This document shows, piece after piece, positions 4,227 through 15,683 of a DNA stretch of 52,328 nucleotides. Source of the DNA: Chthoniobacterales bacterium. GTDB taxonomy: Bacteria; Verrucomicrobiota; Verrucomicrobiia; Chthoniobacterales; UBA10450. The position numbers were made by a program, and so were the translations under genes. The DNA is taken from positions 1-52,328 of the forward strand of contig JBHENE010000091.1 of NCBI GenBank assembly GCA_046262215.1, given 5' to 3'. The notes beneath the pieces are model-generated. The model saw only the letters and a program-made list of their open reading frames with translations. It had not been told where the DNA came from and made no database searches. The number at the start of each line of letters is the position of its first letter. Within the stretch, counting starts at the first letter, position 1.

Positions 4227-7085
4227 ATGAACAGACTTTACCGTAAACAACTGTTCTTGGCTCTCTCCGCTGCGTTGTTAATCGGCGTCGCATCAGACGC
4301 GGCCGCACAAGCGGTCTCACGCGTCGTCAATCTCTCGACGCGCATGGTGGTGCAAAATGGCGACAACGTTTTGATCGGCGGTTTCATCATTTCCGGAACG
4401 GGGTCGAAGCGGGTCGTCCTCCGCGCGATCGGACCATCGCTTCAGGTGCCTGGTACGTTGGCAGATCCGACGTTGGAGTTATTTGACGCGAGCGGCCGCT
4501 CGATCGCGTTCAACGACAACTGGCGGACGGCCGAGGCTGCGATACTCGCTACTAAGCTCGCACCAGCGAAGGACCAGGAATCAGCTCTCGTTGCCGATCT
4601 CGACCCCGGCAGCTACACGACCGTAGTTCGGGGCGTAAACAGCACCGGCGTCGCGCTCGTCGAGATCTACGACATCTCGCCAGACGCATCGACATCGCGG
4701 ATCGCAAATCTTGCGACGCGCGGCACTGTTCTAACTGGTGATAACGTCATGATCGGCGGCTTCATCGTCCGTGGCAGCGCCTCGAAGCGGATGATCCTAC
4801 GCGCACGCGGACCTTCACTGTATCTCAATGGTCAGCCGATCCCCGGTCGGTTGTCCGACCCAGCGATTGAGTTGCACGACGCGGACGGGGCGAAAATCAG
4901 CGCAAACGACAGCTGGCGCAGCAGTCAGCAGACCGAAATCGAGGCGAGCACGCTTGCCCTTTCTGACGACCGCGAAGCAGCGCTGATTGCGACCTTGCCG
5001 CAGGGGAATTATACCGCGGTGGTTCGCGGCGCGGGCAACACGACGGGCATCGCCTTGCTCGAGATGTATGATCTCGATCAGCCGCCGCAAGCCGACGGGT
5101 CGACGCTCTTCATCTCGCAGCTCCGCGCGCAAGGCACCACTCAGTCGCTCGGCTCCGGTACAGCGACGTTGCGCCTCTCGGCGGACGAGACCTACGCCGT
5201 TATATCGTTCGATTATACGAATCTCTCGTCGGCAGTCACCGGCATGCACATTCATGGACCGGCTGATCCGGGCCAGAGCGGCGGCATTATCTTCGATGTC
5301 GATACCGCGCGGCCGCAGCCGAACGGAAGCTACGTGTGGGTTTTCGCACCGACGGGAGCAAACAGCGTCGCCGACCTCGTCGCGGCGATAAAGGCCGGGC
5401 GCACCTACTTCAACATCCATACCTCATCCTTCCCGACCGGTGAGATCAGTGGATTCTTTAACCTGTCGACCGGTGGACAAACCGCGCCGGTGCCGACTCC
5501 GCCGCCAGCTCTCGCGTCCGGTAATCCTTCCGCGGTTGATGCCGCGCGTTTCCTGCGCCAGGCGACGTTCGGCGCAACCGAAGCGCAAATCGCGAAAGTG
5601 CAGACCCAGGGATTCGATGCGTTCCTAAACGAACAATTCACGGCGCCGATGTCGTCGCACCTGGCCTTCGTCGACGCCGCCGTTGCGGCGTTGCCACCTC
5701 CGTCTCCTAGCGCGACACCGAGCGCGACTCCGAATCAGCCAACCGTCACGATGACAAACGACGCTTGGTGGACGCATGCGATTGCCGGCTCGGATCAGTT
5801 GCGACAGCGCGTCGCGTTCGCGCTGAGCGAAATCTTCGTCGTCTCACTGAACAGTGCCGGCCTCGGGAATAGGCCATACGCATTGCCGACCTACTACGAC
5901 GTGCTCGTGAACGATGCGTTCAGCAATTACCGCCAGCTACTCGAGGACGTTACGCTCAACCCAGCAATGGGCGCGTACCTCAACATGCTTCAGAACGACA
6001 AGGAGAACACAACGCGAGGGACTCGGCCTAACGAAAACTACGCGCGTGAAATCATGCAGCTGTTCTCGATCGGGCTGTATCAGTTGAACCTCGACGGCAG
6101 CCTTACGCTGAGCGCCTCCGGGTTGCCAATCGCGACGTATGATCAGCAGGCGATCCTTGGCACCGCATCCGTTTTCACCGGCTGGACCTATTACCAGACC
6201 GGCACAACGTCCTTTTTCCCGCCGCAGGACTGGCGCCATCCGATGGTGAACATCGCGAGCCGACACTCAACCATAGCCAAGACAATCCTGAACGGAGTCT
6301 CGCTGCCTGCGAACCAAACAGCCGCGCAGGATTTAAAGGTGACGCTCGATACCATCTTCAGTCATCCGAACGTCGGCCCTTTTGTCTGCCGACAGCTCAT
6401 CCAGCGGCTTGTCACCAGCAACCCGAGCCCTGGCTACGTCTATCGTGTGGCATCGGTCTTCAACGATAATGGGCAGGGAGTCCGCGGTGATTTACAGGCC
6501 GTGGTGCGCGCCATCCTGATGGACTACGACGCGCGCGGCGCCGCTCGCACCGCGCAAGGCAGCGGCAAGCCACGCGAACCTGTCATGCGGGTCACGAATT
6601 TGGTGCGCGCCTACGGCGGCACATCGCAAGACGGTAAATTTTCGATGCGCAATGCCTTTGCATCGCTCGCTGAAGAAGCGATGCATTCGCCCACCGTCTT
6701 CAATTTCTTCTCGCCCGATTATCAGGCACCGGGGGCGATCGCGACTGCTGGGTTGAAGAGCCCGGAGCTGGAGATCCAAACCGAGACCACCGTGATCTCC
6801 ACCGCCAATTATTTGCGCACCGGCATCTATTCCTACTTCGGTCCGTCCACGAATCGCATCACGCTGAATCTTACGAACGAACAGACTCTCGCGACGGATC
6901 CAGCGAAGCTCGTCGATCATCTCGACGCGCTGTTGATGGCGAGCAGTATGTCGCCGGGAATGCGCAACGTGGTGCTGAACGCGCTGAACCAGATTCCCGC
7001 GGACACGGCCGCCAACCGGCTGGAGCGAGTCCGCACGGCCATCTATCTCGGCGTGAATTCGCCGGAATTCGCGGTGGAGAAATAG
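4227..7085 (+). CDS. secreted multidomain protein: two tandem ~120-aa repeats + CHRD-like domain + DUF1800
   Basis: Signal peptide follows ATG 4227 (MNRLYRKQLFLALSAALLIGVASDAAAQ). Internal duplication at nt 4323-4679 and 4701-5078. CHRD-like segment GTATLRLSADETYAVISFDYTNLSSAVTGMHIHGP. DUF1800-type region begins at FLRQATFGAT. Confidence 0.85.
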   Translation: MNRLYRKQLFLALSAALLIGVASDAAAQAVSRVVNLSTRMVVQNGDNVLIGGFIISGTGSKRVVLRAIGPSLQVPGTLADPTLELFDASGRSIAFNDNWRTAEAAILATKLAPAKDQESALVADLDPGSYTTVVRGVNSTGVALVEIYDISPDASTSRIANLATRGTVLTGDNVMIGGFIVRGSASKRMILRARGPSLYLNGQPIPGRLSDPAIELHDADGAKISANDSWRSSQQTEIEASTLALSDDREAALIATLPQGNYTAVVRGAGNTTGIALLEMYDLDQPPQADGSTLFISQLRAQGTTQSLGSGTATLRLSADETYAVISFDYTNLSSAVTGMHIHGPADPGQSGGIIFDVDTARPQPNGSYVWVFAPTGANSVADLVAAIKAGRTYFNIHTSSFPTGEISGFFNLSTGGQTAPVPTPPPALASGNPSAVDAARFLRQATFGATEAQIAKVQTQGFDAFLNEQFTAPMSSHLAFVDAAVAALPPPSPSATPSATPNQPTVTMTNDAWWTHAIAGSDQLRQRVAFALSEIFVVSLNSAGLGNRPYALPTYYDVLVNDAFSNYRQLLEDVTLNPAMGAYLNMLQNDKENTTRGTRPNENYAREIMQLFSIGLYQLNLDGSLTLSASGLPIATYDQQAILGTASVFTGWTYYQTGTTSFFPPQDWRHPMVNIASRHSTIAKTILNGVSLPANQTAAQDLKVTLDTIFSHPNVGPFVCRQLIQRLVTSNPSPGYVYRVASVFNDNGQGVRGDLQAVVRAILMDYDARGAARTAQGSGKPREPVMRVTNLVRAYGGTSQDGKFSMRNAFASLAEEAMHSPTVFNFFSPDYQAPGAIATAGLKSPELEIQTETTVISTANYLRTGIYSYFGPSTNRITLNLTNEQTLATDPAKLVDHLDALLMASSMSPGMRNVVLNALNQIPADTAANRLERVRTAIYLGVNSPEFAVEK

Positions 7086-7087
7086 CT

Positions 7088-8446
7088 ATGTATTCGCCGA
7101 CCCGCCGCACTTTCATCCGCCAGGCCGCCTGCGCCGCGCTCACCACGTCCGGCATTCTCAACACCATCTTCGATCTGCGGCGACTAAGCGCCGCAACGCC
7201 GACGGATGGAGATTACAAAGCGATCGTCTGCCTGTTTCTGTTCGGAGGGAACGACGCCAACAACGTCCTCATCCAGCACGACGCGAACGGCTATCCCTCC
7301 TACGCCGCCGCGCGTGGTGTGCTCGCCCTGCCGCAGGCTTCGCTTCTTCCGCTCACCTTGCAGGGCGGCGACGGCCGAGACTTCGCGTTCCATCCAAACC
7401 TCCCGGAGCTGCAGTCACTCTTCAACCAGGGTAAACTCGGCGTCGTCGCAAACGTCGGCACCCTCGTAGCGCCCGTCACGCGCGCACAATATCTCGCCGG
7501 TGGTGCGGCTGTCCCTCCGCAGCTTTTTTCGCACGCGGACCAATCAGTGCAGTGGCAGACATCGGTCCCGGACCGAATTTCGCGCACAGGTTGGGGCGGA
7601 CGCATGGCTGATGCGCTTCGGTCGCTAAACGGTGATTCAAAGATCTCCCTCTCGATCTCCATTGCAGGCACGAACACATTTGAAGTCGGCGACACCGTCC
7701 TGCCATATAGCGTCTCGCCAACGGGCAGCCTCGGGCTAGCGGGAATGGACGGGAGCGCGAATTCAAACGTGCGGCTGCAGGCGTTCAAAGACCTGCTCGC
7801 GCAGCCGCACAACAACCTCTTCGAGAAGGCGTACTCTGACACCGTCACACGATCGATCGCGGCGAATGACCTTCTGACTTCTGCACTCGCCGGTGTGGCG
7901 CCGTTGAAAACTGTCTTCCCGGCTACATCGCTCTCGAATCAACTGCAGATGATCGCGAAACTGATCGCTGCCCGCACCAATCTCGGCATGCGTCGCCAGA
8001 TCTTCTTCTGTTCGGTCGGCGGCTACGACACCCACGGCGACCAGCTCACCGGCCAGGCGAATCTCCTGACGGAGCTGAGCCAGGCACTCAACGCGTTTTA
8101 CAACTCGACGGCCGAACTCGGCGTTGCCGATCAGGTGACGACGTTTACCGCTTCCGATTTCGGCAGAACATTCCCGACGAACGGCTCCGGCTCCGACCAC
8201 GGCTGGGGCAGTCATCAATTCGTGCTTGGCGGCGCGGTGCAGGGCGGACGACTGTTCGGCACGTTCCCAACGCTCGCTGTGAATGGTCCTGACGACACCG
8301 GCCAGGGCCGTTGGATTCCCACGACTTCGGTCGACGAATTTTCAGCGACGCTCGCGTCATGGTTCGGCGTCGGCGCTTCCGAGATGCCGCTCGTCTTGCC
8401 AAATATCGGCCGCTTCGCGCATCCCGATCTCGGCATTTTCGCGTAG
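7088..8446 (+). CDS. DUF1501 (sulfatase/phosphatase-like) protein with Tat signal
   Basis: Twin-arginine leader SPTRRTFIRQAACAAL. Motifs GGYDTHGDQ and SDFGRT...GSDHGWG are present. Starts 2 nt after the DUF1800 gene, the usual DUF1800/DUF1501 pairing. Confidence 0.85.
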   Translation: MYSPTRRTFIRQAACAALTTSGILNTIFDLRRLSAATPTDGDYKAIVCLFLFGGNDANNVLIQHDANGYPSYAAARGVLALPQASLLPLTLQGGDGRDFAFHPNLPELQSLFNQGKLGVVANVGTLVAPVTRAQYLAGGAAVPPQLFSHADQSVQWQTSVPDRISRTGWGGRMADALRSLNGDSKISLSISIAGTNTFEVGDTVLPYSVSPTGSLGLAGMDGSANSNVRLQAFKDLLAQPHNNLFEKAYSDTVTRSIAANDLLTSALAGVAPLKTVFPATSLSNQLQMIAKLIAARTNLGMRRQIFFCSVGGYDTHGDQLTGQANLLTELSQALNAFYNSTAELGVADQVTTFTASDFGRTFPTNGSGSDHGWGSHQFVLGGAVQGGRLFGTFPTLAVNGPDDTGQGRWIPTTSVDEFSATLASWFGVGASEMPLVLPNIGRFAHPDLGIFA

Positions 8447-9628: not shown

Positions 9629-10005
9629 CCGATCGCCTGCCGGTAACCGGCCGCGTCTTTCAACTGCTTCACGTCATCGGGTGAACTCATCTTCAGGACG
9701 AAGATCCAACCGTCACCAAATGGGTCGGTGTTCACCAGCGCGGGATTGCTGGAGAGAGCTTCGTTCACCTCCACGACCTCGCCCTTAATCGGCGCGTAGA
9801 TGTCACTTGCGGCCTTCACGGATTCGACGACTGCAATCTGCCCGCGTGCCTCGGTTTGGGCACCCACCTTTGGCAGCTCCACGTAAACGACATCGGTGAG
9901 CTCGGCTTGCGCATGGTCCGTGATGCCGACGCGCGCGTTTTGGCCTTCCACGCGGACCCACTCATGCGACTCGGTGTAGAAAAGATCGTCAGGAACGTTG
10001 CTCAT
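9625..10005 (-). CDS. gcvH: glycine cleavage system H protein
   Basis: 126 aa with the lipoyl-lysine motif VESVKAASD and an N-terminal YTESHEWV. Confidence 0.95.
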   Translation of the reverse strand: MSNVPDDLFYTESHEWVRVEGQNARVGITDHAQAELTDVVYVELPKVGAQTEARGQIAVVESVKAASDIYAPIKGEVVEVNEALSSNPALVNTDPFGDGWIFVLKMSSPDDVKQLKDAAGYRQAIG

Positions 10006-11162
10006 GCCTTTTTGTAGAGTGGTTTCTTTTCGATGACAGCAGGAAATTTCTGGCCACGGATTTCGATCTGCAGCTCAGTCCCGATCTTGGCGTGTTCGGT
10101 TGGCAGATACGCCATCCCGATGCCGTAGCCAAGGCTCGGCGAAAGTGTGCCGCTGTTCACTTCGCCGATGCGTTCGTCGCCTCTGAAAACTGGATAGTGC
10201 GGGCGAGGAGGCGGTCCTTTGCCCTGCATGCGGAACGGCACGAGGCGGCGCTTCAAGCCTTGCTCCTTCGCGTTCGCGAGGATCTCGCGGCCGGTGAAAT
10301 TCGGCTTCGCGAGATCAACGAAAAACCCGAGACCCGCTTCCAGCGGCGTGTGCTCCGGAGTCAGGTCGTTGCCATTCAGCGGGTAACACATCTCGAGGCG
10401 CAATGTGTCACGCGCGCCAAGTCCGCACGGCCGAATGCCTAGATCTTTTCCTTTCTCCAGCACCGTCGTCCAGAACGTCGGCGCGTATTTCGCCTCGAAG
10501 AAAACCTCTACGCCATCTTCGCCGGTGTAGCCGGTTCGCGCGATCGCCAACGGCATGATGCCGAGCGCGACTTCAACGATCGTATTCCGCGCTGGCAGCT
10601 GGAATGTGTCGCCGAGAATCGCCTGAAACAGCTCTGCAATTCGCGGTCCCTGAATCGCGAGACCCGCGTATTGATCGCTCCGATTCTCGAGCGTCACTTC
10701 AGGAAGAATGTGCGCCTGTAGCCATGCGAAGTCTTCCTCTGTGCGGGAGGCGTTCACGATCAGCAGAAACTGCTCCTGTTTCGTGCGATACACGATCAAG
10801 TCGTCGATGATCCCGCCATTCTGGTTCAGCAGGAAGGTGTACTGCCCACTGCCGACTTCGAGCTTCTCGATGTTGTTCGTGAGCATGCGATTCAGCCATT
10901 CGCCGGCGCGTGCGCCGGACGCGATCAGCTGACCCATGTGCGAAATATCGAACACGCCGACGTTGTTCCGCACCGCCTGATGCTCGTCGCTGATGCTGGT
11001 GTATTGCACCGGCATCAGCCAGCCGCCGAACGGGATGATCTTCGCGCCCGCCCGCCGATGCTCTTCGTAAAGCGGCGTGGTTTTCGACTCGGCTTCGCTC
11101 ACGCCGCTGAAACTAGGTGGCGCGTCCAGCGCGTCAATCAACCCAGCGCCGTGAGTCCACAT
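10002..11162 (-). CDS. gcvT: aminomethyltransferase (glycine cleavage T protein)
   Basis: TPLYEEHRRAGAKIIPFGGWLMPVQY and the full GcvT length are present. Its TGA overlaps the gcvH ATG (ATGA). The start is uncertain: ATG 11162 or GTG 11102. The 434-aa ORF start at 11306 would overlap the divergent gene. Confidence 0.9.
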   Translation of the reverse strand: MWTHGAGLIDALDAPPSFSGVSEAESKTTPLYEEHRRAGAKIIPFGGWLMPVQYTSISDEHQAVRNNVGVFDISHMGQLIASGARAGEWLNRMLTNNIEKLEVGSGQYTFLLNQNGGIIDDLIVYRTKQEQFLLIVNASRTEEDFAWLQAHILPEVTLENRSDQYAGLAIQGPRIAELFQAILGDTFQLPARNTIVEVALGIMPLAIARTGYTGEDGVEVFFEAKYAPTFWTTVLEKGKDLGIRPCGLGARDTLRLEMCYPLNGNDLTPEHTPLEAGLGFFVDLAKPNFTGREILANAKEQGLKRRLVPFRMQGKGPPPRPHYPVFRGDERIGEVNSGTLSPSLGYGIGMAYLPTEHAKIGTELQIEIRGQKFPAVIEKKPLYKKA

Positions 11163-11189
11163 CGCGGTGCGGTTACGATGATGTAGGCA

Positions 11190-11996
11190 ATGACCCTGCT
11201 GAACAACCTTGAGCGGCGGCTTGGATTCCTCGCGATTCCAGGGCTCGTGCGGATCGTGGTTATGTTCACCGCGCTGGTCTGCGTGCTCGCTTACACCGAC
11301 CCGCAATTTCTTTCCGTGCTCGATCTGAACCCGGAGCTCATCAAGCGCGGCCAGCTCTGGCGTCTCATTACCTACATCTTCATCCCTAAATCGCCGGTGA
11401 CACCCGGCTCGATGCTCTCGCCACTCTGGGCGGTCGTTGCGCTTTGGTTCCTCTGGTTCATCGGCGACGGATTGGAACGCGCCTGGGGAGCGTTCCGCCT
11501 CACGCTCTACTTCATCGTCGGCATGATCGGGACGACGCTCGCGGCATTCGTCTTCGGTGCGCGCTTCTCAAATGGAATGCTGGCCGCATCGCTCTTCTTC
11601 GCCTTTGCGTTCTTTTATCCGGATGAAGTCATCTACGTGATGTTCATCCTGCCGGTGAAGATCAAGTGGCTGGCGTGGCTCTCGGCCGCGTTCATCATCC
11701 TCGGTTTCGTTACTGGGAGCTGGGCGGATCGCATCGGGCTCATCCTTGCGTTCGCGAACTTCTTCATCTTTTTCGGACCGCAGATCGTGCACCAGGCGAA
11801 GCACCGAAAAGATGTCGCAAGCCGACGGCAGCGATTCGAGGTGCAGACGCGCAGCGTCGAAGAACCACTGCACCGCTGTGCCACCTGCGGAGCGACAGAG
11901 TTGAGTGATCCGAATCTCGAGTTCCGCGTCTCGCGCGATGGCGAGGAATATTGCCTGGCGCATTTGCCAAGTGCCGCCACGACCGAGGTTCGCTAG
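11190..11996 (+). CDS. rhomboid-like polytopic membrane protein with C-terminal Cys-rich (zinc-ribbon-like) tail
   Basis: GQLWRLITYIF resembles the rhomboid TM2 WR motif, and there are about 6 hydrophobic helices. I see no GxSG or catalytic His. The tail is HRCATCG...EYCLAH. The TAG stop is the first 3 nt of the IS target duplication. Confidence 0.7.
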   Translation: MTLLNNLERRLGFLAIPGLVRIVVMFTALVCVLAYTDPQFLSVLDLNPELIKRGQLWRLITYIFIPKSPVTPGSMLSPLWAVVALWFLWFIGDGLERAWGAFRLTLYFIVGMIGTTLAAFVFGARFSNGMLAASLFFAFAFFYPDEVIYVMFILPVKIKWLAWLSAAFIILGFVTGSWADRIGLILAFANFFIFFGPQIVHQAKHRKDVASRRQRFEVQTRSVEEPLHRCATCGATELSDPNLEFRVSRDGEEYCLAHLPSAATTEVR

Positions 11997-12018
11997 CCGC
12001 GGGTAGTGGTACAGTTTG
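11994..12018. repeat. left IS end: target-site duplication TAGCCGCG (11994-12001) + IRL GGTAGTGGTACAGTTTG (12002-12018)
   Basis: Read directly from the sequence. IRL is the exact reverse complement of 14665-14681. Confidence 0.9.
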
Positions 12019-12042
12019 AAATCTGAAAGGTTTGCGTTCGCC

Positions 12043-12058
12043 TGACCGCTCAAGCATA
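12043..12058 (+). promoter_or_regulatory. 16-bp motif TGACCGCTCAAGCATA, copy 1 (8 nt upstream of ORF79 ATG)
   Basis: Exact repeat of 13327-13342. Its 3' end forms a -10-like CATACT, and TTGCGT lies 17 nt upstream. This would give a nearly leaderless mRNA. Confidence 0.45.
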
Positions 12059-12066
12059 CTCGCAAC

Positions 12067-12306
12067 ATGGCAAAGCGAGCACGCGCGGGCGACCTGAATC
12101 AGATTGCAGCATCCATTGTCGAGCGGACAACGGGCCCGTCCAAGAAAACTGAGACACTACAGCCGAAGAATCCAGCGGCGGTGGCGCTCGGTCGGCTTGG
12201 CGGATTAAAGGGTGGAAGGGCTCGCGCCGAATCGTTGTCAAAAAAACAGCGTTCAGAGATCGCGAAGAAAGCAGCGAAGGAACGCTGGACAAAGAAGTTG
12301 GCCTGA
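12067..12306 (+). CDS. small basic protein (79 aa), IS passenger
   Basis: ATG ORF, Lys/Arg-rich. The motif ALGRLGGLKGGRARAESLSKKQRSEIAKKAAKERW is one I recall from unannotated small ORFs on mobile DNA. A short hairpin follows (12312-12330). Confidence 0.55.
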   Translation: MAKRARAGDLNQIAASIVERTTGPSKKTETLQPKNPAAVALGRLGGLKGGRARAESLSKKQRSEIAKKAAKERWTKKLA

Positions 12307-12382
12307 GTGCACCTCGTCGTCTCAACGAGGATGTCACATCTACATATTGCGATGCGTCGATATTAACACTGCGGAAAACCGC

Positions 12383-12400
12383 GATATCGTGGATATCGTG
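12383..12400. repeat. tandem 9-mer GATATCGTG x2 upstream of ORF138
   Basis: Exact tandem duplication read from the sequence. A third CGATAT is at 12358-12363. Confidence 0.6.
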
Positions 12401-12424
12401 TAACAAATCGGATGTAAATTAACG

Positions 12425-12452
12425 TTGACGCTACTTCTGCAGGTGCTAAGTT
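12425..12452 (+). promoter_or_regulatory. putative sigma70-type promoter of ORF138 (TTGACG-16 nt-TAAGTT)
   Basis: The hexamers and spacing fit the consensus. Located 21 nt upstream of ATG 12473. Confidence 0.4.
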
Positions 12453-12457
12453 CCTGC

Positions 12458-12469
12458 TTAACGCGTTAA
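12458..12469. promoter_or_regulatory. perfect 12-bp palindrome TTAACGCGTTAA between the -10 and the ORF138 start
   Basis: Perfect dyad. A related TTAACGTT lies at 12419-12426, overlapping the -35. The layout is operator-like. Confidence 0.4.
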
Positions 12470-12472
12470 CAC

Positions 12473-12889
12473 ATGGCCGACGAACAAGTAGATATCGCTG
12501 CGTTCCGTGCGATACGGGATCAATATGCAGCCGAAGTAGAGAAAGCTGATCGCGACCTCGAAAAGGCGAAGGACAAACTCGCGCACGCGAAAAACCGTCT
12601 TCAGGTCGCCAACGAGATGATCGCACAAGCGACCGGAGGCAAGGAAGGTACGCACAAGCCGCTAAGCGAGGAAGTGCTGCGGGTCATCAACGAGGCAAAT
12701 GGCGCGGGCCTCACCGCGAAAGATATTCGCGACAAATTTATGGCAGAAGGCTTCCACTTCGAACTTGCCGCAATTCACGTCAACGCGGACAGGCTGAAGA
12801 AAAAAGGGGCGATTGAACTGCTCCAGGGCCCAGATCCGCGAACGAAGCTGTTTCGATCGATAACCGTTAACCAAATGAATACGGCATAA
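12473..12889 (+). CDS. hypothetical protein (138 aa): N-terminal coiled coil + C-terminal winged-helix-like domain, IS passenger
   Basis: ATG ORF. Heptad-like N-terminus (EVEKADRDLEKAKDKLAHAKNRLQVANEM). The C-terminal part (LSEEVLRVINEANGAGLTAKDIRDKF...LKKKGAIELL) looks wHTH-like. A strong terminator hairpin follows immediately. Confidence 0.6.
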   Translation: MADEQVDIAAFRAIRDQYAAEVEKADRDLEKAKDKLAHAKNRLQVANEMIAQATGGKEGTHKPLSEEVLRVINEANGAGLTAKDIRDKFMAEGFHFELAAIHVNADRLKKKGAIELLQGPDPRTKLFRSITVNQMNTA

Positions 12890-12895
12890 AAATTC

Positions 12896-12940
12896 GGCCG
12901 CTTGTGACGCTGGAGAACGTCGCAAGCGGCCTTAACTTTT
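12896..12940 (+). terminator. rho-independent terminator after ORF138
   Basis: 14-bp stem GGCCGCTTGTGACG/CGTCGCAAGCGGCC (one G-U) with an 8-nt loop, followed by TTAACTTTT. Starts 7 nt after the TAA. Confidence 0.65.
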
Positions 12941-13250
12941 CCTCGCGGACCCGCAACTGGTTCGTGAGGGGATGCGCAGGCTTAGGGTGCCCCGCCCCGA
13001 ATCAAATCTTGGGTAGGGTATCTGCAACCGGCTTGGCGTCAAGATCAAAGTTGCAGCTTCAAATGGAGGATAAAACCAAAATTGAAGACATATACCTGCC
13101 GTCATTGCGGTGGGCCGATCATCTTTCGGACGCGCCGCAGCGCGCCTGAATCGGTGCTTCTGCCCAAGCCGTTCGTGCGAGGTCGCGTCATTCCCATCCA
13201 TACGGATGGCGGGTGTCAGTTGAACTTCGGACTGAACTAGCAGCGTTACG

Positions 13251-13287
13251 AGGCTGGGCGGCGTCGCCCGCAAGTCCCGCCCAGCCT
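13251..13287 (+). other. GC-rich hairpin (11-bp stem, 15-nt loop) about 70 nt upstream of the transposase gene
   Basis: AGGCTGGGCGG (13251-13261) pairs perfectly with CCGCCCAGCCT (13277-13287). A weak T-run follows. It could act as a read-through insulator or be part of an RNA. Confidence 0.35.
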
Positions 13288-13318
13288 CCCGTCTTCACTG
13301 GTTTTCTTCACGTTAAGA

Positions 13319-13344
13319 AATATGCTTGACCGCTCAAGCATATT
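13319..13344. promoter_or_regulatory. perfect palindrome AATATGCTTGA-CCGC-TCAAGCATATT containing copy 2 of the 16-bp motif
   Basis: 11-bp arms with a 4-nt spacer. Ends 15 nt before the transposase ATG and overlaps the -10-like TATTAT/CATATT. Confidence 0.5.
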
Positions 13345-13359
13345 ATCTACTTTACACAC

Positions 13360-14190
13360 ATGAACAAGTTGAGCACCGAAGAACGGAAGCAGGTTGTCGC
13401 CGCACTGGTGGAAGGTAATTCCCTGCGCGCGGTCACCCGCATGACAGGCGTGCATCGCACTACCGTCATGAAGCTACTTGTCGACCTCGGTTCAGCTTGT
13501 TCCGAGTATCAGGACAAAGCATTTCGTAATCTGAAATCAAAAAGAATCCAGTGCGACGAAATCTGGAGCTTTGTTGGCGCGAAGGAAAAGAACTGCAGCG
13601 CGGAGATGAAGGCGAATGGCTCCGGCGATGTGTGGACTTGGGTAGCGTTGGATGCGGATTCGAAGCTCGTTCCCTGCTGGTTCATCGGGGAGCGCCACGC
13701 AGGCTGCGCCTTCCACTTTCTTTCCGATCTGAAAGACCGCCTCACAAACCGCGTGCAACTGACTACCGACGGTCACAGGGCGTATCTCGACGCGACGGAG
13801 CGGGTCTTCGGAACCGAGATTGATTACGCTCAACTGCAAAAGATTTACGGCGCTGCGCCAGAAGGCGCGCAGGTTCGCTACAGCCCAGCAATATGCATGG
13901 GCGCACGCAAAGCGGTCATCAACGGGAGCCCTGATCACAAGCACATCTCGACCAGCTACGTCGAGCGCCAGAACCTCACAATGCGCATGTCGATGCGCCG
14001 CTTCACTCGCCTAACGAATGGCTTTTCGAAAAAAGTCGAGAACCTCGAAGCGGCCGTCGCACTGCACTACATGCACTACAATTTCTGCCGGATTCACCAA
14101 TCGCTGCGTATCACGCCAGCGATGGAGGCGGGGGTCTCCGACCACGTTTGGTCGCTTGATGAGGTTATCGAGCTTCTCGGATCACGATGA
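13360..14190 (+). CDS. IS1-family DDE transposase (single ORF, HTH + catalytic domain)
   Basis: N-terminal HTH (SLRAVTRMTGVHRTTVMKLL). DDE candidates WVALDADS, LTTDGHRAY and SYVERQNLTMR. The InsB-like motif ERQNLTMRMSMRRFTRLTNGFSKK is present. No frameshift is needed. Confidence 0.9.
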   Translation: MNKLSTEERKQVVAALVEGNSLRAVTRMTGVHRTTVMKLLVDLGSACSEYQDKAFRNLKSKRIQCDEIWSFVGAKEKNCSAEMKANGSGDVWTWVALDADSKLVPCWFIGERHAGCAFHFLSDLKDRLTNRVQLTTDGHRAYLDATERVFGTEIDYAQLQKIYGAAPEGAQVRYSPAICMGARKAVINGSPDHKHISTSYVERQNLTMRMSMRRFTRLTNGFSKKVENLEAAVALHYMHYNFCRIHQSLRITPAMEAGVSDHVWSLDEVIELLGSR

Positions 14191-14427
14191 ACGCCAAAGG
14201 AAATTCCTCACTGAGCAGAGAGCCTGAATCAACGGCTTTGCTTTTGCCGAAGCTTGGACTGCGCACGCGAACTCTCCGTCGAGCCGCAGCCCAAGCTTCT
14301 TGCAGCGACTGTCCGCGTCCGCCCAATCGTACGCGTACAAATCCACTACCCACCAGTGGCCGTCATGGTGGTAGCTGGCAACGAAACGACGGCACTCCTC
14401 ACCAGGAGTCAGTCCAGAAAAAAACAT
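14182..14427 (-). CDS. hypothetical small protein (81 aa), possible IS passenger
   Basis: ATG 14427 (or GTG 14442). The segment HHDGHWWVVDLYAYDWADADSRCKKLGLRLDGE resembles a small phage/plasmid protein pattern I recall. It overlaps the transposase stop by 9 nt and abuts the yegP-like ATG. It could instead be an antisense shadow ORF. Confidence 0.35.
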   Translation of the reverse strand: MFFSGLTPGEECRRFVASYHHDGHWWVVDLYAYDWADADSRCKKLGLRLDGEFACAVQASAKAKPLIQALCSVRNFLWRSS

Positions 14428-14616
14428 ATGATCACAAACCACACAGGGTACTACGTCCTATATCGGGACAACCAGCAACAATGGCGGTGGACATTTCGCG
14501 CCGCCAATCACCGCGTCATCGCTGTTTCCAGCGAGGCGTATGTCAACAAGTCGGATTGCGTGTCCGCGATGAACCTCATCGCAAACTCGACGGGTTGCGC
14601 AATTCACGAGCAGTAA
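14428..14616 (+). CDS. YegP/DUF1508-like single-domain protein (62 aa), IS passenger
   Basis: GYYVLYRDNQQQWRWTFRAANHRVIAVSSEAYVNKSDCVSAMNLI fits the YegP repeat pattern (aromatic-x-L-x-x-D..WRW.L.A.N...IA.S.E.Y..K.DC). The longer ORF from 14254 has no protein-like N-terminus. Confidence 0.65.
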   Translation: MITNHTGYYVLYRDNQQQWRWTFRAANHRVIAVSSEAYVNKSDCVSAMNLIANSTGCAIHEQ

Positions 14617-14634
14617 GCATCGCAGAAAGCGGTG

Positions 14635-14665
14635 GGGCGTGTCTCCATAAAAAAGAGGCACGCCC
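14635..14665 (+). terminator. hairpin abutting IRR (11-bp stem with one G-U, 9-nt A-rich loop)
   Basis: GGGCGTGTCTC/GAGGCACGCCC. There is no downstream T-tract on the + strand. It may end yegP-like transcription or block inward read-through. Confidence 0.35.
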
Positions 14666-14689
14666 AAACTGTACCACTACCTAGCCGCG
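14665..14689. repeat. right IS end: IRR CAAACTGTACCACTACC (14665-14681) + target-site duplication TAGCCGCG (14682-14689)
   Basis: Read directly from the sequence. 17/17 complementarity to IRL, and the same octamer as at 11994-12001. Confidence 0.9.
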
Positions 14690-14732
14690 CTGCAGCTTGA
14701 CCCTCTCTCCCGCGCCGGTGACACTTGGCGCC

Positions 14733-15560
14733 ATGACGGCAGAGAACAACGGCGGCGCGCTCATCCCCGAGCAGGGCTGGCATTGCCTCCACCTGTTTTA
14801 CCGGATCGAGTACGGGCAGTGGCAACTGCTCACGGCTGACGAGCAACGCGAAGCGAAGACGCGGCTGTCATCGCTTGTGCAGGAGGTTCGCGCGCTTCCT
14901 TCGACGCAGCTACTCACGCTCAGCGTCGTCACTCCAAAAGCCGACTTGGCGTTCATGCTGATCACCCCCGATCTGCACGTCGCGAATCGCATCGAGAAAC
15001 AGCTCAGCCAGGTGCTCGGCCCAGACGTTCTCATGCCGGTCTACAGCTATCTGTCTTTAACCGAAGAGAGCGAATACCGCACGACCGTGGAAGACTACGC
15101 TGTCACGCTCCGGGAAGAACAAAAACTCGCGCCTGGCTCGGCGGAATTCGAGCAGGCGATGGCCACGTTCGAAGAGCGGATGAAGCATTACCGGCACGAG
15201 CGCACCTACCCGACGCTCCCGGACTGGCCGGTCGTTAGCTTCTATAATATGAGCAAGCGCCGCGGCGAACGGCGCAACTGGTATGCACTGCCGTTCGAAG
15301 ACCGACGCAAATTGATGCTGGGCCACGGCGCTGTCGGGCGGCAATACGCGGGCAAGGTAAAGCAACTGATCACTGGCTCGACTGGACTCGATGACGCGGA
15401 GTGGGGCGTTACGTTGTTCGCGCGCGATACCTTTCAGATCAAAGCGATCGTCTACCAGATGCGCTTCGACCCGGTCAGCGCGGACTACAGCGACTTCGGT
15501 GAATTTTACATCGCGCTGCAACTGCCGCTCGACGAGCTGTTCCGTCGATTGCAGCTTTGA
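14733..15560 (+). CDS. chlorite dismutase family protein (Cld-like / coproheme decarboxylase-type)
   Basis: GWHCLHLFYRI, FYNMSKRRGERRNWYALPFEDRRKLMLGHG and TLFARDTFQIKAIVYQMRFD are typical of the Cld/HemQ fold. ATG 14733 is preferred over TTG 14697. Confidence 0.85.
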   Translation: MTAENNGGALIPEQGWHCLHLFYRIEYGQWQLLTADEQREAKTRLSSLVQEVRALPSTQLLTLSVVTPKADLAFMLITPDLHVANRIEKQLSQVLGPDVLMPVYSYLSLTEESEYRTTVEDYAVTLREEQKLAPGSAEFEQAMATFEERMKHYRHERTYPTLPDWPVVSFYNMSKRRGERRNWYALPFEDRRKLMLGHGAVGRQYAGKVKQLITGSTGLDDAEWGVTLFARDTFQIKAIVYQMRFDPVSADYSDFGEFYIALQLPLDELFRRLQL

Positions 15561-15592: not shown

Positions 15593-15677
15593 GGATGGGT
15601 GGCAGAGTGGTCTAATGCGCACGCCTGGAAAGCGTGTTTGCCGCAAGGCAACCAGGGTTCGAATCCCTGCCCATCCG
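15593..15677 (+). tRNA. tRNA-Ser (anticodon GGA), class II with long variable arm; CCA not encoded
   Basis: Cloverleaf folded by hand. Acceptor GGATGGG/CCCATCC, D stem GCA/TGC, anticodon stem CACGC/GCGTG with loop CTGGAAA, variable arm TTGCC-GCAA-GGCAA, T arm CAGGG-TTCGAAT-CCCTG, discriminator G. Confidence 0.95.
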
Positions 15678-15683
15678 CGCCTG

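Follow-up and report, generated by a model that had tools for sequence, protein, structure and literature searches.

We analysed a 52,328-nucleotide stretch of contig JBHENE010000091.1 from a Chthoniobacterales bacterium (assembly GCA_046262215.1), hereafter called the window. A 2,680-bp segment of it (positions 12002-14681), located between a rhomboid-like gene and hemQ, is bounded by perfect 17-bp inverted repeats (IRs). The left repeat (IRL, 12002-12018, + strand) reads GGTAGTGGTACAGTTTG, and the right repeat (IRR, 14665-14681, - strand) is its exact reverse complement. Both are flanked on the outside by the same octamer, TAGCCGCG, which forms a target-site duplication (left copy, 11994-12001; right copy, 14682-14689). 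Between the repeats, four genes follow one another on the + strand. They code for a small basic protein of 79 amino acids (aa) (12067-12306), a 138-aa protein (12473-12889), a 276-aa transposase (13360-14190) and a 62-aa DUF1508 protein (14428-14616). Together, these features very probably make up an intact, cargo-carrying insertion sequence (IS) of the IS1 family, i.e. a 'transporter IS'.

The 17-mer has only two matches in the window at up to three mismatches, for an expectation of 0.01 in shuffled sequence, and perfect 17-nt inverted pairs less than 5 kb apart should arise by chance about 0.015 times per 52 kb. Both termini begin with GGTAGTG, in agreement with the GGnnnTG rule of the IS1 family, and the length of the duplication, 8 bp, is within the 8-9 bp of that family. 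The GC content of the element is 54.8%, vs 60.0% for the remainder of the window, and it is lower than in all 235 segments of equal size elsewhere (lowest 56.1%). A search of positions 11900-14800 against Rfam yielded no RNA family, even at E = 1. An earlier note on this DNA had described perfect repeats and an 8-bp duplication, IS1-like termini, a drop in GC content and a 276-aa transposase, and it had proposed an IS1-family element with genes unrelated to transposition as the accessory part of the region. These descriptions hold up, as detailed below for the transposase and for the conserved gene pair into which the element has inserted.

The transposase and its affiliation to the IS1 family

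The transposase is encoded by a single, uninterrupted open reading frame (ORF) without a frameshift. It comprises an N-terminal helix-turn-helix (HTH) region and a catalytic domain with an Asp-Asp-Glu (DDE) triad. Residues 3-42 weakly match several HTH models, and Pfam family PF03400 (DDE_Tnp_IS1) is matched at 32.1 bits (cut-off 24.1), albeit over profile positions 84-125 of 131 only. As a reference, we rebuilt the InsAB' protein of Escherichia coli/Salmonella IS1A from plasmid record NZ_CP020493.1. BLASTP aligned the two proteins from the HTH through the C-terminus (E = 3e-6, 26% identity, 240 columns), and the motifs DE.W..VGAK, W...A.D....V....GER, TDG..Y and ER.NL..R....R......FSK are retained in both. 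The last one includes the ERxNxxxR...FSK signature, already noticed in the sequence as an InsB-like motif (ERxNxTxR...FSK). Based on this alignment, the catalytic residues are D66, D137 and E202, and approximately 45 additional residues separate the second Asp from the Glu relative to InsAB'. The alignment starts at InsAB' residue 54, in the HTH; the CxxC...CxxC region has no counterpart in the 276-aa protein, which lacks an N-terminal zinc finger.

An exact-sequence look-up of the transposase returned no record. Homologues are abundant, with more than 8,000 database clusters, many of them named 'IS1 family transposase'. The same label is found on copies in cultured Mesorhizobium, Acidiphilium and Hoeflea plasmids, and a copy in Methylocapsa is annotated merely as a helix-turn-helix protein. 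In relatives with a minimal right arm (e.g. loci L057, L041 and L050 of the survey described below), the transposase gene ends with a TGA stop codon inside IRR (CAAAC-TGA-CCCACTACC). The IRR of the window copy has TGT at this position, and its transposase ends 491 nt earlier. Sequence comparisons thus place the element in the IS1 family.

A derived insertion between conserved neighbours

The element occupies a short spacer between the gene of the 268-aa rhomboid-like protein and hemQ. The TAG of the left copy of the duplication serves as the stop codon of the rhomboid-like ORF; thus, the insertion interrupts no gene. The right copy lies 7 bp upstream of a conserved TTGACC in the promoter-like region of hemQ. 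Exact-sequence look-ups of both flanking proteins returned no record. We therefore compared the synteny of 80 related loci collected in a metagenome scan with the rhomboid-like protein. A hemQ homologue directly follows the rhomboid-like gene in 73 of the 80, with gaps of 0 to 258 bp between them, and hence the insertion is the derived state. In the closest locus (L085, 83% amino-acid identity), the spacer is homologous to the joined flanks of the window, and both contain a conserved TTGACC...GACACTTGGCGCCATG stretch. The predicted empty site reads ...GGTTCGCTAGCCGCGCTGCAGCTTGACC...; the protein look-ups led to no exact empty site, and the synteny of the related loci served instead. Located between the stop codon of one gene and the promoter of the next, the insertion is recent and harmless.

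Related elements transpose with their cargo

A scan that included one genome per species, in which at least 588 of 599 matched stretches were confirmed, provided 80 loci with related elements. With four loci obtained before, the survey set amounts to 84 relatives, from Verrucomicrobiota, Acidobacteriota, Nitrospirota, Deltaproteobacteria, Planctomycetota, Chloroflexi and others. Paired ends with the consensus GGTAGTG-NNN-CAGTTTG, which IRL of the window matches, were identified in 70 of the 84, nearly all of which read GGTAGTG. Perfect 8-bp duplications flank 63 relatives, and the target sequences are all different except for those of L002 and L003, which represent the same insertion. IRs identical to those of the window are present in L001, L002, L005, L017 and L076, each with its own duplication. 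The related elements span 1,817 to 4,590 bp. The left arm, measured between IRL and the start of the transposase gene, is at least 621 bp long in all surveyed elements, and the right arm is minimal (12-75 bp) in 16 of 65 and otherwise measures 128-2,650 bp.

One 3,647-bp member was found at two genomic sites (L168 4541-8187 and L169 4541-8187; also L171 and L174), with GACGCGTT as the duplication at one site and GATTTCTT at the other. As cargo it carries a Cas2-like gene (107 aa), placed between IRL and the small gene, as well as genes for a HigB-like toxin and for an HTH_3 protein of 376 aa. The two different duplications establish that cargo-loaded elements of this family transpose as units.

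Two other loci show particular arrangements. In L068 (around 5305-5346), only 8 nt separate the end of an IRR copy from the IRL of the element under study, and two members apparently abut head to tail; the octamers on the two sides of the element under study differ. A 2,634-bp member with the duplication AAGCCGAG resides on a plasmid of Acidiphilium multivorum (NZ_CP041717.1; L166 1767-4400), beside a RES-toxin/Xre-antitoxin pair. That pair was considered as cargo and discarded, as it lies just outside IRR.

A small gene common to the related elements

The 79-aa protein belongs to the single universal family that emerged when all arm ORFs were clustered. Of 64 elements, 63 encode this protein; the gene lies on the transposase strand near IRL in 57, and it usually starts approximately 65 nt inside IRL. 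The 79-aa gene is thus a conserved core gene of the element family rather than cargo. The protein has an isoelectric point of 11.4, and 17 alignment columns are invariant among 62 homologues, which share the Gly-rich basic motif KNPAAVALGRLGGLKGGxARAxxLSxxxRxEIAKKAAxxRW.

At least 7,964 homologues were collected. They are named 'hypothetical protein', and in one record 'histone H1', and contain no Pfam domain. Searches with the 79-aa protein against Pfam and NCBIfam gave nothing significant (best Pfam match PP28, E = 0.017, below the cut-off). PADLOC returned nothing, and the PHROGs gave a short match to phrog_2384 only, a family of unknown function.

In six elements, the motif forms the N-terminus of left-arm cargo proteins of about 340 aa (324-387 aa; L015, L024, L025, L047, L066 and L070). 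Three of these elements, L015, L066 and L070, showed no separate small gene. Homologues are also encoded away from IRs and transposase genes, in L176-L183 (Nitrospira sp. and metagenomes; e.g. L176 5001-5264). The context is prophage-like in these loci, with genes for a tape-measure protein and an integrase, and the neighbours are a gene for a 126-196-aa protein and an XRE + Peptidase_M78 gene.

Two cargo slots and their content

The cargo occupies two slots: a left one, which extends from the small gene to the promoter of the transposase gene, and a right one, from the transposase gene to IRR. In the window copy, the left slot harbours the 138-aa gene. The predicted protein, of the coiled-coil/winged-helix DNA-binding type, is composed of a long N-terminal helix of 46 residues (residues 8-53) and a C-terminal winged helix that resembles those of MarR, Fur and ArsR in Foldseek searches (E from 2e-4). 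The family is rare: 1.84 billion representative proteins include just three close relatives and 17 distant ones. An NCBIfam match to BrxC (25.5 bits for a cut-off of 400) was dismissed as coiled-coil noise, the fold search indicating a generic winged helix. The gene is followed by a predicted intrinsic terminator (12896-12931, + strand; 14-bp stem, -28.8 kcal/mol, T-rich tail). Further downstream are a possible basic 52-aa ORF with a TTG start (13082-13240, + strand), of uncertain gene status and with weak similarity to a 49-aa ORF that L001 has at this position, and a hairpin with a 12-bp stem (13250-13288, + strand; -29.1 kcal/mol), which probably shields the transposase promoter from read-through transcription.

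The right slot contains the 62-aa, YegP-like DUF1508 gene (Pfam E = 4e-10), followed by a predicted hairpin that adjoins IRR (14635-14665; -25.9 kcal/mol). Back-to-back with the DUF1508 start codon is a possible 81-aa ORF on the minus strand (14182-14427). Its gene status is uncertain: it gave a weak PHROG match (E = 0.0026), and no homologue was found in the phage collection or in any of the related loci obtained.

The earlier note had listed as cargo the 79-aa, 138-aa and 62-aa proteins and possibly an 81-aa protein, together with 470 bp of non-coding DNA. All the ORFs are present as described, and the 138-aa and 62-aa genes retain their cargo status. The 79-aa gene has to be moved to the core, and the 81-aa ORF at 12904-13149 is probably no gene, since it starts within the strong terminator hairpin 12896-12931. 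The supposedly non-coding DNA in fact contains two strong hairpins, the promoter of the transposase gene along with the dyad operator, and what may be a 52-aa ORF. Lastly, the cargo had been called uncharacterized; the 138-aa protein is not featureless, given its predicted long helix and MarR/Fur-like winged helix.

The content of the slots varies among relatives. L001 carries a diverged copy of the 138-aa gene (57% identity), and its right slot contains a Bro-N/BstA-like gene where the window has DUF1508, which demonstrates module exchange on both flanks of a conserved core. A DUF1508 gene likewise occupies the right slot of L067. For a broader view, we compared 128 arm ORFs of at least 125 aa with Pfam and PADLOC; the resulting figures are raw census counts. 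The most frequent Pfam matches were HTH_3 (12), P63C (6), Peptidase_M78, SDH_protease and Proteasome (5 each) and N6_N4_Mtase (4), followed by NYN, Gp49 and AAA_16 (3 each) and by nSTAND1 NTPase, Mrr_cat, DUF3800 and others (2 or fewer each). PADLOC matches comprised PD-Lambda-2_B (6), methyltransferases (4-5), HEC-09 (3), RmrA (3) and BstA (1). The ~340-aa proteins with the N-terminal small-protein motif may correspond to the six P63C and six PD-Lambda-2_B matches, as the counts are equal. Judging from these matches, the cargo of the relatives often consists of toxin-antitoxin or phage-defence genes.

The window cargo (the 138-aa gene, the 52-aa ORF, DUF1508 and the minus-strand 81-aa ORF) could, by analogy, be a functional defence, anti-defence or addiction module of selective benefit rather than neutral, hitch-hiking DNA. 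The many toxin-antitoxin, restriction-modification and phage-defence families in the cargo of relatives speak for this idea, as do the pairing of the 138-aa gene with a Bro-N/BstA-like right-slot gene in L001 and the recurrence of DUF1508 in L067. Nevertheless, the window cargo gave no significant PADLOC match (only PDC-M09B, E = 0.0057), the 138-aa family has just 17 relatives among the representative proteins, and there is no evident toxin-like partner. We therefore consider a functional module unlikely for the window copy.

How cargo enters the slots was approached by looking for degenerate internal copies of IRR 3' of the transposase gene. The best candidates have 6-12 mismatches of 17, which is the chance level and lends no support to capture by end skipping.

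Promoters, a dyad operator and putative self-control

Both core genes are preceded by predicted promoters. That of the small gene (12032-12060, + strand) comprises a -35 box TTGCGT, a 17-nt spacer and a -10 box CATACT that ends 6 nt before the ATG. That of the transposase gene (13319-13353, + strand) has a -35 box TTGACC (13326-13331) and a -10 box TACTTT (13348-13353), also 6 nt before the ATG. Matches to the sigma-70 consensus at 10 or more of 12 positions precede the transposase gene in 41 of 64 elements, vs 1.3% of shuffled sequences, and the -10 box ends 6-7 nt before the transposase ATG in 42 of the 64. With such short distances to the start codon, both core genes probably give rise to leaderless mRNAs.

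The -35 box of the transposase promoter is embedded in a dyad, the palindrome AATATGCTTGA-CCGC-TCAAGCATATT at 13319-13344, and a half-site, CCGCTCAAGCAT (12046-12057), is found in the spacer of the small-gene promoter. A dyad of the type GCTTGA-N4-TCAAGC covers the transposase promoter in 39 of 64 elements, compared with 1.8% of shuffled sequences. The dyad varies together with the small protein. The common variant of the protein, with KGG.ARA..LS, is accompanied by the operator GCTTGA..TCAAGC in 38 of 50 elements, and the GG.IGGKRRL.TMT variant by the operator GCTAAAG..CTTTAGC in six of six. Locus L043 is informative in this respect. With L032, L052 and L062 it shares its IR type and a similar transposase (67-69% identity), yet it carries the small protein and operator of the other type. 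Thus, the operator tracks the small protein, and the IR tracks the transposase.

These features are consistent with the following model. The single-ORF transposase, with its HTH and its D66, D137 and E202 triad, would recognize the 17-bp termini, the HTH reading the IRs, and staggered cuts 8 bp apart at insertion would generate the TAGCCGCG duplication. The core of the element consists of the two IRs, the transposase gene and the gene of the small, very basic, helical protein, which lies some 65 bp inward of IRL. The small protein would bind the dyad ATGCTTGA-N4-TCAAGCAT that overlaps the transposase promoter, as well as the half-site in its own promoter, and repress both. It would thereby assume an InsA-like function although it is not homologous to InsA. 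In the window copy, each cargo unit appears to have its own terminator hairpin. As the co-variation stems from few independent events, we regard the role of the small protein as operator-binding repressor as a near-even call.

Several observations weigh against this interpretation as a whole or in part. Regarding the family, the transposase scores 64.9 bits with the NCBIfam model NF033558 (transpos_IS1) and does not reach its cut-off of 100; that model is still the top-scoring IS model, and the score argues for a distant family member rather than an equivalog of enterobacterial IS1. As for mobility, neither a second copy of the exact element nor a record of any of its proteins in other assemblies was found; present activity of the window copy is therefore suggested by its intactness. 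The other points concern the small protein. Its structure prediction yielded three helices at moderate confidence (predicted local distance difference test 77.7, predicted template modelling score 0.37), and sequence and fold searches of the PDB gave no significant match to a known DNA-binding protein. The homologues in prophage-like contexts indicate that the family is not exclusive to these elements. Twelve of the 50 elements with the common small-protein variant have no recognizable operator, and the co-variation involves six variant elements, four of which are from one clade.

The small protein might alternatively be a transposition cofactor or a nucleoid-associated, 'histone-like' protein that acts at the ends or bends DNA in the transposase-DNA complex, and not a promoter-specific repressor. 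Its high isoelectric point, the 'histone H1' record and the position of its gene next to IRL fit such a role, and the occurrence of the motif at the N-terminus of the P63C-like cargo proteins suggests a generic DNA-binding module. However, the operator type follows the small-protein type and not the type of transposase or IR, which argues for sequence-specific recognition of the dyad. We consider a cofactor role improbable as a replacement for repression, but the two roles are not mutually exclusive.

Less probable still is that the dyad is bound by the HTH of the transposase itself, in an autoregulation akin to that by InsA and InsAB', with the small protein having no part in it. In IS1, the HTH-bearing InsA represses transcription, and an InsA-like HTH is retained in the transposase of the window. 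Nevertheless, the dyad has no sequence in common with the IRs, and L043 combines the HTH and IRs of one lineage with the operator of another, the latter matching its small protein.

That the 79-aa protein is itself a passenger, with a core reduced to the transposase and IRs, is very improbable. Such a status would account for its lack of a Pfam or NCBIfam family, for the more than 1 kb of variable DNA between its gene and that of the transposase in the window copy, and for the prophage-like homologues without transposase. It is contradicted by the fixed position and orientation of the small gene across many phyla when all other genes vary, by the minimal length of the left arms, and by the co-variation of the small protein with an operator located in the promoter of the transposase. 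Finally, the single copy in the window and the lack of a record of an identical one might evoke a dead relic or an assembly artefact, but this is hardly credible for an element with perfect IRs and duplication, a full-length transposase with an intact DDE triad, an intact small gene and promoters, and relatives with identical IRs in independent assemblies.

Relation to known elements

A programmed -1 frameshift links insA to insB in canonical IS1, whose InsA protein bears a zinc finger at its N-terminus. The window element shares with E. coli IS1A a homologous HTH + DDE transposase, the GGnnnTG termini and the 8-bp duplication, and its relatives with a minimal right arm share the transposase stop codon inside IRR. 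A further, functional analogy might be the small regulatory protein that is encoded at the left end, whose proposed role is to limit expression of the transposase. In contrast with IS1, the transposase of the window has no -1 frameshift and no zinc finger but additional residues between the second Asp and the Glu, and the small protein is encoded by a separate gene. The latter is not a homologue of InsA: InsA combines a zinc finger with an HTH and binds the IRs, whereas three helices are predicted in the small protein, which bears a Gly-rich basic motif and probably targets a promoter-embedded dyad distinct from the IRs. Canonical IS1 is also only 768 bp long and devoid of cargo slots, compared with 2.7 kb for the window element and 1.8-4.6 kb for its family.

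Some IS1-family elements depart from the two-ORF enterobacterial type, namely the ISMhu11 and 'single-ORF' subgroups. The ISMhu11 subgroup of ISfinder includes passenger-carrying members of up to ~4.6 kb with a frameshifted ORFAB. Taken by this general description, it resembles the family described here in size but differs from it by its frameshifted, rather than single, ORF. Literature searches on ISMhu11 and on passenger genes in IS1 returned nothing relevant.

Transporter ISs (tISs) are defined as insertion sequences that carry, within their own IRs, passenger genes unrelated to transposition (PMC7986276). Like the window element, the ISNha5 and ISNwi1 groups of IS1595 and ISDsp3 of IS6 have passenger genes inside the IRs, but their transposases are of other families. 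The window element has the 138-aa winged-helix and DUF1508 genes inside its IRs, and the related 3,647-bp member has moved with its cargo, as befits a tIS. To our knowledge, the combination of a conserved small core gene and two defined cargo slots has not been described for tISs of other families.

A cargo-carrying IS1-family element is unremarkable as a class. The lead lies at the level of the family, in the small gene, the operator and the two cargo slots, and we found no description of an obligatory small gene with an operator and two slots in the literature searched, which did not cover ISfinder. The zinc-finger-less, single-ORF branch of IS1 is widespread: its transposase clusters number at least 8,000 and come from Verrucomicrobiota, Acidobacteriota, Nitrospirota, Deltaproteobacteria, Planctomycetota and Alphaproteobacteria. 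We tentatively propose, with the odds somewhat against it, that this branch has a distinct, undescribed architecture, with two slots and an obligatory second gene for a small Gly-rich basic DNA-binding repressor that recognizes a dyad and represents a new protein family absent from Pfam, and that in soil bacteria it is a common small vehicle of genes for toxin-antitoxin and anti-phage functions.

In elements of this kind, annotation pipelines recognize just the transposase and overlook a second, strictly conserved gene with thousands of homologues and no family. The co-variation of the operator and the small protein provides a testable model of self-control in a very abundant group of environmental ISs. 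The two-slot design enables elements of just 2-4.6 kb to carry toxin-antitoxin, methylase and defence genes between phyla, which bears on the spread of defence genes outside of large genomic islands.

Other features of the neighbourhood

Upstream of hemQ, the window (14690-14735) and L085 (1415-1484) both contain a conserved TTGACC...GACACTTGGCGCC-ATG stretch. It resembles a promoter for a leaderless or near-leaderless mRNA, and the IS is located 7 bp upstream of its TTGACC. A tRNA-Ser(GGA) gene (15593-15678) is found just past hemQ, about 900 bp downstream of the element, and does not adjoin the insertion site.

On the other side, a gcvT-like ORF (10002-11306, - strand) listed with a TTG start overlaps the beginning of the rhomboid-like gene (11190-11996, + strand) by ~116 nt. 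The gcvT gene probably begins further downstream, in which case it and the rhomboid-like gene would be divergent neighbours. The Chthoniobacterales flank of the element in L005 (340-4116) is 66-86% identical at the nucleotide level to the housekeeping genes at 5761-8434 of the window, which suggests a related verrucomicrobial host for the latter, probably also from Chthoniobacterales. The L005 element occupies a different locus from that of the window, with a similar duplication (AATAGCCG).

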